In this document: one piece after another, positions 16,308 through 62,936 of the stretch
Layout of the letters: each line of letters starts with the position of its first letter
How positions within the stretch are numbered: the first letter of the stretch is position 1
Assembly: GCA_951406725.2 (NCBI GenBank)
Contig: OX597819.1
Span: forward strand, 14,818,001-14,882,000
DNA: 64,000 nucleotides
DNA from: Octopus vulgaris
Lineage: Eukaryota
Direction: 5' to 3'
Notes under the pieces: model-generated
Seen by the model: the letters and a program-made list of their open reading frames with translations, nothing else
Database searches by the model: none
Told to the model about the DNA's origin: nothing
Translations under genes and position numbers: made by a program

Positions 16308-16612
16308 AATCATTATTTACATTATTTACATTTGACGGATATTTGTCCTCATCTTGTTTGTTGTTAACACAACGTTTCGGCTGATATACCCTCCAGTCTT
16401 CATCGGGTGTCTTGGGCACATATTTTAGACATATGTAGACCGAGTGTAGATATGAATAGCATATGGGAACCGGTATTAAGGAAGGATAGGAAAATATTAG
16501 ATTTGAAAGCCCTAAAATTCACCTCATAATTCTCTACGGGTATATGGCGTAGTGGTTAAGAGCGCGGGCTACTAACCCCAAGATTCTGAGTTCGGTTCCA
16601 GGCAGTGACCTA

Positions 16613-16659
<47 letters not shown>

Positions 16660-16824
16660 TAATACCTTATGAATGAGAACCCACGTTCGAAATGTCCCCA
16701 AGACACCTGATGAAGGCTGGAGGGTATATCAGCCGAAATGTTGTGTTGACAACAAACAAGATGAGGACAAATATCCGTCAAATGTAAATGATATACATAA
16801 TTCCTCATCTCTTAAATATAGAAC
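16308..16824 (+). mobile_element. Family C Penelope-like insertion: inverted HHR tail, ORF end, tRNA-like head, (TAA)n, HHR tail
   Basis: 16308-16416 is the reverse complement of the 16697-16800 tail; 16416-16529 reads AHILDICRPSVDMNSIWEPVLRKDRKILDLKALKFTS*; A-box at 16545, B-box near 16590. Confidence 0.75.
16702..16747 (+). ncRNA. Minimal type I hammerhead (family C)
   Basis: gacac-CTGATGA-a-ggctg..cagcc-GAAA-(c/t)GTT-gtgtt; copies at 16366-16411(-), 42795-42840(-), 43534-43579(+), 51533-51578(+). Confidence 0.75.
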
Positions 16825-18326: not shown

Positions 18327-18629
18327 TTATAATGAAATTATTAAATTATAATGCAAGATATGTAGTTCCTATTTGCACTTTTTATAATGGAACCATAATT
18401 GTTAGCGAGTCGGATAAAATACTCAGCGATGGCATTTCTTCCGACTCTTTAAGCAACAGAGCGTAAATTCTGCAGAGGCTGACCGTAAAACAACGTAACA
18501 TCCAAATTCTGGCTTAACGTAATTTACTTGCCCTCTGCCTTAACATTCTTGGCCTTGCGCTAAAATCTGAAACAACTATTATTATCGTTATTATTTTCTT
18601 CGTTGTCTGCCACGTCTAAGACCACCTAC

Positions 18630-18743
18630 TTACCTTCCGGATCCAGGAAGATCGTCCTTATTACAAGATCCAGATTTTTCCGAACCATCACGGAAAAATC
18701 TGGATCTTGCAATAAGGACGATCTTCCTGGATCTGGAAGGTAA
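18630..18743. repeat. Near-perfect hairpin (53-bp arms, 8-nt loop)
   Basis: 18630-18682 vs 18691-18743, two mismatches. Confidence 0.9.
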
Positions 18744-18744
18744 C

Positions 18745-19490
18745 TCAGTGGTCCTGGGCGTGGCAAGCAGCGAAGAGCATACTTTTAGGATAGTTGCCGT
18801 CTATGTTCCGACAGGAGCAGGACAAGCAGATTTCTTCAGACGTCTGGAAACGTCCCTGGGAACGTTCTGCTCTCTAGTGTTAGTGGGGGATTGGAATGGA
18901 GTTTTAGATGTAAGATGGGACTATGCAGCTTTAGGAGATAGGATAGGAGGATGCAAAAGTCTCTCAAACCTGCTCAGACGATTCCAACTGTCCGACAGGT
19001 ATCGACTGGATTTCCTGGATGTGCCAGTGTGGACCTGGTCAAACCGCATCGGGTCATCCACATTGTATCTAGATAGGGTATTCTGTAGAGTAACCGATAA
19101 GGATAGCATAGGTTGTCCCCAGTTTAAAGTAGTCGACCACACAGACCACAAATTAGGGATCTGTACAGACGACTTAGACAGGGACCCAATTATTGGAAGC
19201 TGAACACATCGTTGCCGGCGCGTAAAGATTTTAGTGACCGGATTAGAAAAACTAATTAAGAAGACGTTAACGGGAGCTATAATCCACAATAGATGGTGGT
19301 TCGCCCTGAAAAGGGCGATTAGAATAGAATCGATAAGGTTTAGCAAAGGACAAGCGGTAGAAAGAAACAGTAGAGGAAGGGCTAGTCAAAAAGTTAGACG
19401 AGGCTTTTAGAAAAGGCATCGCGACCGACCTGCTCGCAATGAAATTGGCACTCGACCAATTCTTCAACGCAAAACGCGAAGTTTGTACAA
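18745..19490 (+). pseudogene. Tx1/L1-clade LINE ORF2 fragment (APE endonuclease)
   Basis: AVYVP, LVGDWN, WTW, YLDRVF and TDHK motifs, then frameshifted YWKLNTSL. Confidence 0.85.
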
Positions 19491-37742: not shown

Positions 37743-38500
37743 AAGGCGCATGCACCAGTGGTTAGAGCGTCGAGCTTACGATCGTGAGGTTGTGAGTTCG
37801 ATTCCTGGACCGGGCTGCGTCTTGTGTTCTTGAGCAAGACACTTTATTTCCCGTTGCTCCAGTTCACTCAGCTGTAGAAATGAGTTCCGACATCACTGGT
37901 GCCAAGCTGAATCGGCCCCTTTGCCTTTCCCTTGTATAACATCAGAGGCGTAGAGATGGGAGGCTGGTATGCATGGGCGAACTGGCAGAAACGTTAGTGC
38001 GCCAGGTGATATGCTTAACGGTATTTCTTCTGCCGCTACGTTCTGAGTTCAAATTCCGTCGAGGTCGACTTTGCCTTTCATCCTTTCGGGGTCGATTAAA
38101 TAAGTACCAGTTACGCACTGGGGTCGGTATAATCGATTTAATCCGTTTGTCTGTCCTTGTTTGTCCTCTCTGTGTTTAGCCCCTTGTGGGTAGTAAAGAA
38201 ATAGGTATTTCTTCTGCCGCTACGTTCTGAGTTCAAATTCCGTCGAGGTCGACTTTGCCTTTCATCCTTTCGGGGTCGATTAAATAAGTACCAGTTACGC
38301 ACTGGGGTCGATGTAATCGACTTAATCCGTTTGTCTGTCCTTGTTTGTCCCCTCTGTGTGTAGCCCCTTGTGGGTAGTAAAGAAATAGGTATGCATGGGC
38401 GACTGCTCATTTTCCATAAAATAACCTTGCCCGGACTTATGCCTCGGAGGGTAACATTCTAGATGCAATCCCATGGTTATCCGTGACTGAAGGGGGTCTC
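37743..38500 (+). mobile_element. SINE-J (tRNA head, cttgagcaagacac motif) split by a SINE-B dimer
   Basis: Duplication ggtatgcatgggcga at 37966-37980 and 38388-38402; uninterrupted relative at 42300-42632(-). Confidence 0.85.
37976..38389 (+). mobile_element. SINE-B dimer, 184-bp period
   Basis: Units start at 38021 and 38205. Confidence 0.9.
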
Positions 38501-38595: not shown

Positions 38596-38800
38596 TATAT
38601 GCATATGTATGTATAGTGGTTAGGGTGTTGCACTCACCATTGCAAGATCGTGGGTTCAATTTCCGGACCGGGCGTTGCGTTGTATTCTTGAGCAAAGCAC
38701 TTCATTTTACGTCGCTCTGCAATCATCTCAACATCTGACATGTGGTACCCAGTTGCACCTGTACAGGTAATGTCGATTTGATGGAGGGAGTGAGCTTATG

Positions 38801-39518
38801 TCAACCTATTACATTCGAATGTATCTTTCAAATGCCTTTACTTTGGCGCGTTGAGACCCGAAAAAAGCAGCCTGCAGCTAATAATTAGCAGCAGTCAATT
38901 TATCGGTTAGAGAACATATTTATTTACATAAAATTTATTAAGGGTAGAAATTGATATTTATCAATTAAAACCAGTGGTCTAGCATATTAAAATTTCTACC
39001 CTTGATTAATTTTATATAAATAAATATGTTCTCTAACCGATAAATTGACTGCTGCTAATTATTAGCAGCAGGCTGATTTTTTCGGGTCTCAACGCGCCAA
39101 AGTAAAGGCATTTGAAAGATACATTCGAATGTAATAGGTTGAACTCCATGCACGCGATACTCCGGTATCGTTTTTGCATCTAGTCCAGCAAATTGCATTC
39201 TTAACGGACCATGCTGATGAATGGCTACAGTTATCCTTGCGGATAATAATAGCCGAAACTGATCAGTACATGGGTAATTATTTTATTTCGTATATTTTCA
39301 CTTGTTTATTGCTTTGGTTTTGTGCTGAGTTTGATTTGAGAACATAATCTTTTGTGGAGAATGGCGATTTGACGTCTATATCTAGCATGTTGACTGTCCA
39401 CTTTTCGTGTTTAGTCCTTAATTGGTATATATAAATATTTTAATCTTCGGATTCTTTTTTAATATGCTAGACCACTGGTTTTAATTGATAAATATCAATT
39501 TCTACCCTTAATTAATTT

Positions 39519-39523
<5 letters not shown>
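38801..39523 (+). mobile_element. HHR mini-element, 506-bp monomer with junction-spanning 5' inversion
   Basis: Direct repeat at 38991/39497; 38801-38992 is the reverse complement of monomer end joined to monomer start. Confidence 0.85.
39209..39273 (+). ncRNA. Type I hammerhead ribozyme
   Basis: ccatg-CTGATGA-at-ggcta..tagcc-GAAA-ctgatca-GTA-catgg; palindromic stem III actgatcagt. Confidence 0.85.
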
Positions 39524-39579
<56 letters not shown>

Positions 39580-42705: not shown

Positions 42706-42898
42706 ACAGTTCTATATTTAAGAGATGAGGAATTATGTTCATTATTTACGTTATTTATATTCAACGGATATTTGTCCTCATTTTGTTTGTTGTTAGCAGA
42801 ACGTTTCGTCTGGTATACCCTCCAGCCTTCATCAGGTGTCTTAAGGAAATTTCGAACCTGGGTTCTCATTCCTAAGGTATTTTTCGATGTTATTATTA

Positions 42899-42969
<71 letters not shown>

Positions 42970-54230: not shown

Positions 54231-54348
54231 CATTTATATATGTGTGTATGTGTGTGTAGGGGGGCTCCAGTTCCTATCCGTGCATTGGGTTCGTCAGTTT
54301 TCATCCAATCTCTTCGGCTGATGTTTTTGCCGATATATATATATATAT

Positions 54349-55125
54349 ATTGTATAAAAGGGCTTAGTAAAATAAATTACTTTGCCACATACTGAACTCA
54401 TTAGAAATAGCAGCCAAAAAAAGATTTTTTAGCCATTTCTAATACTTAAAGAAAATTTTACAATGTAATATTTTGAATTCGCCTTAAATGGTCCCTTTAC
54501 ATACTGAATACTTGGTGAAATTGATTAATAACTAATTAATTTTACCCTCAATTGTTGAAATTATAATTCATTTCTCTTTGTTTAATGCCTCGGTTTTCAC
54601 CGATAAAATATGGTGTTTGCTAGTCTGACCCACGTGGGTGGAAGGGGGAGAGCAGGAATTCTTCGCTTGCATATTTTGAATTTGTTGGCACTGTTAGTTT
54701 GAACGGATCTTCTGAGGTGAAAAGTCGCCAAAAGGGTATGCTCCTACTTTCAGTGTTTCCAAATTCGAATTAAGAAATTTTGGGCTGACGAAAGAAATGT
54801 CGAATTGTATTTGGCTGATCTAGAAACGTACGTTCTCAAATAATCTTTGCACTTGTGATTTTTTAATGTTTTTACCCCCATACCTTCGTGGGTTATTTTG
54901 AGTAAACACTATCTGAGAGAAATTTTCTTTAAGTATTAGAAATGGCTAAAAAATCTTTTTTTGGCTGCTATTTCTAATGAGTTCAGTATGTGGCAAAGTA
55001 ATTTATTTTACTAAGCCCTTTTATACAATGTAATATTTTGAATTCGCCTTAAATGGTCCCTTTACATACTGAATACTTGGTGAAATTGATTAATAACTAA
55101 TTAATTTTACCCTCAATTGTTGAAA

Positions 55126-55126
<1 letters not shown>
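54349..55126 (+). mobile_element. HHR mini-element, 565-bp monomer with 103-bp direct repeat and 5' inversion
   Basis: 54459-54561 = 55024-55126; 54349-54457 = reverse complement of 54920-55029; (TA)n on both sides. Confidence 0.85.
54779..54840 (+). ncRNA. Type I hammerhead (stem II base imperfect)
   Basis: tttggg-CTGACGA-...-GAAA-cgtac-GTT-ctcaaa; palindromic stem III acgtacgt. Confidence 0.65.
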
Positions 55127-55184
<58 letters not shown>

Positions 55185-62467: not shown

Positions 62468-62934
62468 ATAACATAAGGGACATCAGCCATCTGAATGTGG
62501 CTAGGGACAGGGCAGGGCGGTGGGGGTGTTACTGATGCATTTAGCCCCAGGCGATCATCAACGTCACCAGGAGGGCTGACACCATCACGGTGTCCTCTAG
62601 CCTGCAAAGGGAGATCATTCCCCGAAGAAGCGGATGCCACATACGGACCTAGGTTTCAAGGTATTTGCCTATTATCAACGCATGGCAGGCACCGCTCCTC
62701 GACGAATAACTCTCTGTGCAGGCTATATTTAAAGATTTTCACAGTAAATACATTTACTGATGTAGAAAATCCGTTCGAAAGCAATAATAATTCTCTAAAC
62801 GAGATATAAACAGTAACTGCTCCATAACATAAGGGACATCAGCCATCTGAAGTCCCTAGCCACATTCAGATGGCTGATGTCCCTTATGTTATGGAGCAGT
62901 TACTGTTTATATCTCGTTTAGAGAATTATTATTG

Positions 62935-62936
<2 letters not shown>
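62468..62936 (-). mobile_element. HHR mini-element, 356-bp monomer with junction-spanning 5' inversion
   Basis: 62468-62495 = 62824-62851; 62852-62936 = reverse complement of 62780-62851 continued by 62496-62509. Confidence 0.85.
62640..62684 (-). ncRNA. Type I hammerhead with U3-A8 variant core
   Basis: catgcg-TTGATAA-taggcaaatacctt-GAAA-cctag-GTC-cgtatg. Confidence 0.7.

Follow-up and report, generated by a model that had tools for sequence, protein, structure and literature searches.

For the non-LTR retrozymes, self-cleavage and circular RNAs were shown in coral, mussel and axolotl, and Penelope-like elements (PLEs) were named as their likely drivers (PMC7229834). Retrozymes have also been linked to the pseudo-LTRs of PLEs (10.64898/2026.07.22.740005), and circular templates were proposed for copies of more than unit length (PMC4209133). 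The PLEs themselves are reported to insert as partial tandems with an adjacent inverted copy and a tail at one end; their target duplications are 8–10 bp in size, and the insertions are biased towards (TA)n (PMC8557442, PMC3846280). Both strands of the target are nicked by a purified PLE, which extends them starting at two adjacent internal sites, and the stretch between the two sites corresponds to the genomic tail; for one PLE in vitro, uncleaved RNA was the dominant template and ribozyme mutants still inserted (PMC11167929). The origin of the tandem, inverted and tailed PLE insertions has been called an open question (PMC8557442, PMC11167929).

The window analysed here is a stretch of 64,000 nucleotides from Octopus vulgaris; it contains copies of four repeat families, E1–E4 (Table 1). 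Based on the evidence below, we read E1–E3 as protein-less hammerhead repeats, which would be copied from circular, unit-length RNA by a borrowed Penelope-like reverse transcriptase/endonuclease; the probability of this reading is about 0.6. Both the non-LTR retrozyme class and the circle model are already published (PMC7229834, PMC4209133, 10.64898/2026.07.22.740005). The new parts are the families E1–E3, a strict rule for the ends of their arms and the family E4. As judged from the DNA, E1–E3 are a real and new set of non-LTR retrozymes with direct footprints of PLE integration.

Table 1. Positions of the E1–E4 features in the window
Feature	Position	Strand	Remarks
E4 copy	16312–16421	−	
E4 copy	16536–16824	+	includes 16707
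E4 copy	42709–42931	−	
E4 hammerhead cores	43539, 51538	+	
E1 second (inverted) arm	38801–38992	−	unit 467–506 then 1–152; 3′ part and (TA)n flank absent
E1 forward arm	38991–39520	+	one 506-nt unit plus 24 nt; ends at the long fixed end (site B)
E1 type I hammerhead	39209–39273	+	predicted cut after GUA, 39268
E1 short fixed end (site A, unit 444–448) and ~82-nt A-to-B tail	39434–39520	+	
(TA)n microsatellite	39522–39578	.	target at the E1 3′ end
E2 inverted arm	54341–54458	−	unit 465–581; ends at the short fixed end in (TA)n
E2 forward arm	54456–55128	+	period 565; ends at the long fixed end, then (TA)n
E2 type I hammerhead	54778–54841	+	CUGACGA...GAAAC, loop GUAC, GUU triplet; predicted cut after 54834
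E3 arm	62468–62851	−	period 356 plus 28 nt; ends at the short fixed end in (TA)n
E3 type I hammerhead	62637–62684	−	U3-A8 core variant, GUC triplet; predicted cut after 62646
E3 second arm	62852–62936	+	unit 344–356 then 1–72; ends at the long fixed end (44-nt tail) in (TA)n

In the E1 copy, 38801–38952 and 38991–39142 are 97% complementary. A second inverted match, between 38916–38992 and 39457–39533, is 94%, and the direct repeats are spaced by 506. The complementarity and the period agree with an earlier note on this DNA, which had the inverted block running from the end of the monomer into its start, and the microsatellite abuts the forward arm, as expected from the (TA)n 3′ end given there. 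The 27-bp terminal repeat and the monomer junction, which the same note treated as fixed features, merely mark the point at which the forward arm of this copy stops. Self-BLAST recovered both of the further elements that it had assigned to the same plan, E2 and E3; their hammerheads are present, on the strands that it gave, and the two copies are typical of their families. Different from these, the inverted arm of the E1 copy is atypical. It stops at unit position 152 without (TA)n, whereas 90 of 90 scored arms of the ordered E1 sample end at a fixed site; the arm was probably truncated secondarily. The sequence to its left (38610–38800) has no match that reaches its end among the other loci compared. 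A SINE-like repeat (38615–38800) abuts the shortened arm, and one 184-bp tandem pair of another common repeat is located further upstream (38020–38392). Elsewhere in the window, one 210-codon open frame (18571–19203, plus strand) appears LINE-endonuclease-like by eye and has no Pfam match.

The E1 hammerhead was identified by direct reading; it contains stem I (CCAUG/CAUGG), CUGAUGA, stem II, GAAAC, a palindromic loop III and GUA, and its predicted fold has a z-score of −4.65. Type I is the correct class for this ribozyme, whereas the word intact, also used before, is uncertain, as one extra base follows A9 in the window copy and in none of the others among 30 copies. E2 carries an unpaired A.A or U.U at the base of stem II. 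Rfam gave no hammerhead among 150 listed of 372 window matches, all of them microsatellite noise, and did not report the E1 hammerhead in 39100–39400; one strict motif scan of the window missed all three ribozymes, owing to their variants. In the ordered loci described below, the motif is readable in 22 of 49 for E1, 32 of 45 for E2 and 18 of 41 for E3, counts that are limited by the many arms too short to reach the hammerhead. Across 13 hand-picked E1 copies, 98% of the cells pair and four of the 20 pairs are changed in both partners, one of these four lying within the palindrome of loop III; the shuffle test of this pairing is inflated by the relatedness of the copies. Among the 18 E3 loci with readable motif, the core is U3-A8 in ten, C3-G8 in seven and mismatched in one. 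Owing to these compensatory changes, in the E1 pairs and in the C3-G8/U3-A8 switch of E3, the predicted ribozymes of E1–E3 appear to be under selection.

For the whole units of E1–E3, the predicted folds are rods that place the ribozyme close to the tip (z −8.0, −8.1 and −4.6; none of 100 shuffles was as stable in each case). Covariation is not claimed for the whole E1 rod: the consensus fold of eight units was built from differently phased pieces, and only four of 93 pairs are changed on both sides. No ATG frame exceeds 87 aa in E1, 92 aa in E2 or 30 aa in E3, as determined for one natural multimer of each family.

All three families are of high copy number in the host genome, which is 2.8 Gb in size and rich in microsatellites. 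Exact motifs upstream of both 3′ ends of each family matched 1,365, 1,355 and 712 times for E1, E2 and E3, respectively, compared to 0 for the reversed-pattern controls; E1–E3 are therefore repeats that did not arise by chance. Similarity searches gave 1,958, 2,388 and 1,584 first-look candidates, of which 38–40 were scored. To avoid ranking bias, we analyzed loci in position order on one contig (C1): 49 for E1, 45 for E2 and 41 for E3, 135 in total. The E1 and E2 loci represent all of the first 100 motif matches listed, the E3 loci the 76 matches on C1, with 24 matches on C2 left out; the sample of each family thus covers about 100 or fewer of 712–1,365 motif matches. Another 20 loci, including the three window copies, were used in the variant tests only. 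Distant relatives of E2 (68–77%) and of E3 (86% over the tail) were also observed (L190:4989–5391, L190:6110–6470, L158:485–755 and L189:5276–5317), those of L190 within (TA)n, which suggests that the genome contains many more such families.

Head-to-head pairs make up 100 of these 135 loci, and the other 35 consist of one arm each. While the arms have free 5′ ends, their 3′ ends are fixed at two sites per family, one short (A) and one long (B), 44–94 nt apart. They correspond to unit positions ~444–448 and 524–530 in E1, ~16 and 110 in E2, and 28 and 72 in E3. By script, the 100 two-armed loci comprise 92 A+B, three A+A, one B+B and four with some other end. Following review by eye, A+B was assigned to 94 of 97 classifiable pairs, with a binomial p of ~1e-22 against free choice. 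In this review, L198 was recoded as one long arm split by an inserted repeat, and L303 as long plus short with a small internal piece. The short+short pair of L247 and L250 is secondary, as it represents a single locus that was duplicated and has mirrored flanks; L047 genuinely departs from the rule. The near-identical E3 loci L247 and L250 lie 54 kb apart on C1 (67.40 and 67.45 Mb), and the mirrored flank suggests that an inverted duplication started from the palindrome.

At 208 of 235 arm ends we found (TA)5 or more, in a search window that includes 14 nt of the element. Clear shared strings of 11–14 bp are present at L081, L236, L298, L299 and L307, five of the 24 strings listed, the others lying within microsatellite. 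Because 11–14 bp are duplicated where the target is not pure microsatellite, (TA)n is likely the target and not a tail. The junctions between arms vary by locus, with 1–5 nt of microhomology, blunt joins or short inserts. The inserts of L090, L095, L117 and L121 copy nearby element sequence and resemble what we take to be the signature of polymerase-theta end joining. Upstream of the 5′ ends of the 35 single-armed loci, nothing is shared beyond microsatellite. No PLE fragment adjoins a 5′ end in the 135 loci; PLE protein matches occur in three of them, none adjoining. Taken together, the tail, the inverted arm, the partial tandem, the (TA)n target and the duplication of ~11–14 bp in E1–E3 make up the insertion signature known from published PLEs.

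The 135 loci thus bear out the view in the earlier note of non-autonomous, TA-targeting elements with Penelope-type signature and no link to long ORFs. LTR-like ends of long ORF-bearing PLEs, which that note had named as a refuting alternative, were not found among these loci: the 5′ ends are free and no PLE coding sequence adjoins them. The special rule that it placed at the monomer junction did not hold up. What holds instead is that each of the two fixed 3′ ends is used by one arm, while the 5′ ends are free; a template of more than one unit is required by only 44 of 92 pairs, and the so-called junction is likely only the stopping place of the other arm.

Family E4 provides a contrast. This family (window copies in Table 1, and L311–L360) is composed of a tRNA-like head, an (AAT)n tract and a minimal hammerhead, with two 3′ ends ~25 nt apart, and has 4,870 exact motif matches. 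The head contains motifs that presumably correspond to the A and B boxes of Pol III promoters; ARAGORN and Rfam reported no tRNA in the head and no hammerhead in one E4 copy. Of 27 ordered E4 loci, 18 are head-to-head, and inspection by eye showed 16 of these 18 to be short plus long. The 5′ start is fixed, as any arm extending into the head terminates somewhere in the first ~15 positions of it, and tandem continuity from end to head was found in none of the 27 loci. Since E4 pairs its arms without tandems, inversion needs no circle, and multi-unit arms are confined to E1–E3; the inverted arm had been taken before as a sign of a circular or tandem template, and for the circle this argument is lost. 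None of 42 E4 arm ends lies in (TA)n, so another enzyme probably acts on E4, which makes it an imperfect control for E1–E3. E4 looks like a SINE with Penelope-type integration.

The periods of E1, E2 and E3 are 506, 565 and 356, and their arms reach up to 4.2, 5.9 and 5.7 units, respectively. At least one period is covered by 71 of 235 arms, the longest being 5.9 periods, in line with the templates longer than one unit postulated earlier. The ribozyme circles postulated together with them were not shown as such; circularity is favoured by indirect tests, namely clean passages over the cut site and locus-wide variants. Among 168 passages, five arm ends fall at the predicted cut site, compared to 5.7 expected. 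The site is crossed cleanly in 156 of 162 passages; the remaining six show either an arm end or a deletion, point differences, or a 1-nt gap that occurs in two units of a single locus. Because arms do not stop at the cut more often than expected and mostly cross it cleanly, a cleaved linear unit is disfavoured as template. Two whole ribozymes in one arm are present in only 20 of 135 loci, which speaks against the circle reading.

The strongest competitor of the circle is an uncleaved linear multimer transcribed from tandem donors, with the same enzyme and twin priming; arrays would become uniform by DNA-level duplication or conversion, and the ribozyme would have some other role. We regard this as unlikely, though worth serious attention. 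Unprocessed RNA was the main substrate in vitro (PMC11167929), and in this genome the autonomous PLE family with a 781-aa frame, described below, itself forms a partial tandem of 4,787 bp. The two templates differ in the variants expected from them: variants specific to one unit of a linear multimer should turn up in both arms at the same register, whereas a circle makes variants locus-wide. In 49 multi-copy loci we counted 195 single-unit variants, 16 private variants in all copies, which may possibly originate from unsampled subfamilies, three in both arms at one register, and ten other entries. A clearly derived variant common to both arms at one register only was found in none of the 10,876 columns of these loci. 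In two of the three register-shared cases, the shared allele is that of the family and the derived one is present in adjacent upstream units, which therefore indicates later duplication at the DNA level; the third, L146, is ambiguous, as both arms carry the same allele in their first pass and a different one further upstream, a split that a multimer could explain. Duplication or conversion is visible in about five of the 49 loci (L122, L310, L282, L289 and perhaps L146), so the long arrays are not all rolling-circle products, and the nested sharing of derived alleles in the first four of these speaks for the multimer. The power of the register test is limited by sample size and by such duplication.

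Against the multimer, the variants of most long arrays form a star-like pattern (in L145, for example, 12 variants are confined to single units and none is shared), and many haplotype groups exist, each with uniform arrays. A>G and T>C together account for 19 of 47 locus-wide compared to 28 of 200 single-unit variants (Fisher p 1e-4). A-to-I editing was rejected as the source of the locus-wide variants, with A>G at 9 and T>C at 10. In addition, the ribozyme covaries and E2 has no fixed 5′ start. The 5′ arm ends pile up at E1 unit 326–350 (27 ends; window 39316–39340) and at E3 unit 251–300, near the 3′ foot of the predicted rod, while E2 has a weak 5′ peak. The pile-up could represent a barrier to reverse transcription or, on a linear RNA, a transcription start, which for E1 would suit the multimer. 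Taken together, the lack of clearly register-shared variants and the presence of locus-wide ones favour the circle.

Far less probable is a cleaved linear unit as template, with the reverse transcriptase switching, on every pass, from the 5′ end of the unit to a 3′ end, either its own or that of another unit. R2-type enzymes are known to jump between templates, and this model predicts the same monomer bottleneck as the circle; however, the lack of excess of arm ends at the predicted cut and the high proportion of clean passages argue against it.

RNA-level signals were sought in sequencing runs. Parts of E1 are present in 20 of 24 runs with four organism labels, none of the runs listed being recorded as RNA, and contigs were compared from four runs of one organism. 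The first base of four contigs is 39269, immediately downstream of the predicted cut. They were rejected as evidence of cleavage because a common 1-nt insertion first differs at 39299, so that a graph of 31-letter words, the word size given in the index description, branches at 39269 anyway. A few A>G differences found only in contigs guessed to be RNA were rejected as well; they occur in single contigs with no excess over other changes and no matched DNA.

The two arms of one locus are much closer to each other than to the arms of other loci. For E1–E3, opposite arms diverge by 0.56/0.73/1.46%, compared to 2.7/8.1/9.0% between loci, and in 65 of 69 loci an arm is more similar to its sister than to the median foreign arm. 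Within a locus, a single haplotype is common to both arms and to all tandem units. Both arms thus evidently descend from one template variant, and likely from the same RNA molecule; the same pattern could also result from a pool in which a single donor prevails at any given time, or from conversion of one arm by the other. The 5′ ends of both arms coincide in 20 of 41 E1 pairs (permuted mean 7.0) and seven of 32 E2 pairs (1.4). E3 shows no excess of this kind (two of 19, compared to 1.8 expected).

The coinciding ends and the many near-palindromic junctions would suit a single priming, in which the inverted arm is a fold-back of the first cDNA by self-priming and the second end is cut by endonuclease. 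Self-priming has indeed been proposed (PMC3846280), as has endonuclease resolution of the tail (PMC8557442). However, 27 of 92 pairs consist of two arms that each include sequence lacking in the other, so fold-back of one cDNA cannot produce them; these include the loop orientation of the window copies of E1 and E3. The purified PLE, moreover, extends both target strands from two start sites (PMC11167929). We consider fold-back very improbable as a general account; as the sole route it is refuted by the 27 pairs, and at some loci it may still act. Since E1–E3 share all features of PLE insertions, the inverted 5′ segment probably arose from a second priming, as a cDNA that has a 3′ end of its own. 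It is hardly credible that E1–E3 represent DNA transposons of the MITE kind, or that they are the pseudo-LTRs at the ends of long elements with ORFs. Outward-facing inverted arms in TA do resemble terminal inverted repeats, but arm lengths and junctions vary per locus and the two ends differ from each other; moreover, 35 of 135 loci contain just one arm, whose 5′ end is free, and none of the 5′ ends runs into shared or PLE-coding sequence.

A GIY-YIG search for partner elements gave 6,136 candidates; 16 of the 150 scored lie in an intact frame of 781 aa, which contains a reverse transcriptase, a C-terminal GIY-YIG domain and the cysteine motif given for Neptune/Nematis in PMC8557442. Members of this family have a U3-A8 ribozyme, (TA)n ends and two ends ~37 nt apart, and the two head-to-head loci read (L185 and L187) are both short plus long. 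The family (L181–L190 and L155–L180; for example L182:1842–4184) is young and autonomous, with ~90-bp subrepeats in the 3′ region and an upstream frame of 250–480 codons, one of which was tested and has no Pfam match. Several other GIY-YIG families are present in the same genome. By its behaviour, the 781-aa family is a candidate driver of E1–E3. Comparison with 40 GIY-YIG loci revealed no significant tail likeness between E1–E3 and PLEs. With gap settings chosen by the analyst, 30 of 1000 shuffles were as good for E1–E2, 36 for E1–PLE and 197 for E3 against the 781-aa family. Among the 135 loci, no arm continues into PLE coding sequence.

Under the circle reading, insertion may proceed as follows. 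A tandem copy with two ribozymes would be transcribed and cleave itself twice, and ligation of the unit would yield a circle in the shape of a rod. Both strands of an AT-rich target, in most cases (TA)n, would then be nicked ~11–14 bp apart, as the duplications and the in vitro work (PMC11167929) suggest. Each nick would prime a cDNA, which would start from site A at one nick and from site B at the other, in agreement with the observed ends, and likely on the same RNA. Each cDNA would run back over a variable distance, up to nearly six turns as judged from the arm lengths, and would often stop at the foot of the predicted rod. The cDNA ends would finally be joined via microhomology or short templated inserts, as found at the junctions, to form the head-to-head pair; some long arrays were likely lengthened afterwards by duplication at the DNA level.

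A more far-reaching version is tentative, and we hold it somewhat below an even chance. A dimer of a Penelope-type enzyme would fire twice on one RNA circle, obligatorily once per start site on opposite strands of the staggered nick, and would roll for up to six turns; the rule of one short and one long arm would be the record of the dimer. E4 would insert by the same two-site, head-to-head route from linear RNA, as a SINE with a Penelope-like partner.

In the published literature, we found no account of the E1–E3 families, of the strict rule of one site per arm, or of a tRNA-headed family with PLE-type integration; Repbase, Dfam, supplements (notably the family list of PMC8557442) and subscription papers may hold these families. 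The accessible parts of PMC10886601 and 10.1101/596502 do not cover a tRNA-headed PLE-type family. The mobilisation of retrozymes by PLEs has so far rested on co-occurrence and sequence likeness, and E1–E3 show the PLE integration signature directly. They are short, young and of high copy number, and place a sharp constraint on PLE insertion, one arm per start site and one haplotype per insertion; E4 is their natural linear comparator. For the host genome, the inverted pairs may be a source of long double-stranded RNAs and fragile palindromes.

Compared to the metazoan non-LTR retrozymes (Cervera and de la Pena 2020, PMC7229834; Li et al. 2026, 10.64898/2026.07.22.740005), E1–E3 are alike in having one type I hammerhead per unit and ORF-less head-to-tail repeats. 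The palindromic loop III, the highly self-paired RNA, the co-occurrence with PLEs and the proposed circular intermediate copied by PLEs are also common to both. The units of E1 and E2 (506 and 565 nt) exceed the 170–400 nt of PMC7229834 and lie within the 51–972 bp of 10.64898/2026.07.22.740005. Head-to-head arms with dual ends are present in E1–E3; the word inverted is absent from the available text of PMC7229834, and that of 10.64898/2026.07.22.740005 describes none. Cleavage and circles were shown for the published retrozymes, whereas E1–E3 are known from DNA sequence alone.

Like the PLEs (PMC3846280, PMC8557442; Poseidon PAc, PMC11167929), E1–E3 possess partial tandems, an inverted truncated copy, a tail, (TA)n bias and two starts of reverse transcription, and their duplications of ~11–14 bp are similar in size to the 8–10 bp of PLEs. 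Different from the PLEs, they contain no ORF, and their tails are 44–94 nt in length, compared to 30–40. The start sites showed no difference between strands in vitro (PMC11167929), whereas each site takes one arm in 94 of 97 pairs of E1–E3. Like the non-autonomous Chlamys PLEs, such as MRC1 (PMC8557442), they are short PLE derivatives with multicopy head-to-tail insertions; those elements, however, are described as resembling their autonomous partner at the 3′ end, and most Chlamys have no hammerhead, whereas no partner match was found for E1–E3.

E1–E3 may finally be set beside the inversions of L1. In L1 twin priming, two primings from opposite target strands create a 5′ inversion; the arms barely overlap and the second site is variable. 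Different from these inversions, both sites are fixed in E1–E3, and the arms overlap by hundreds of bases or several units.
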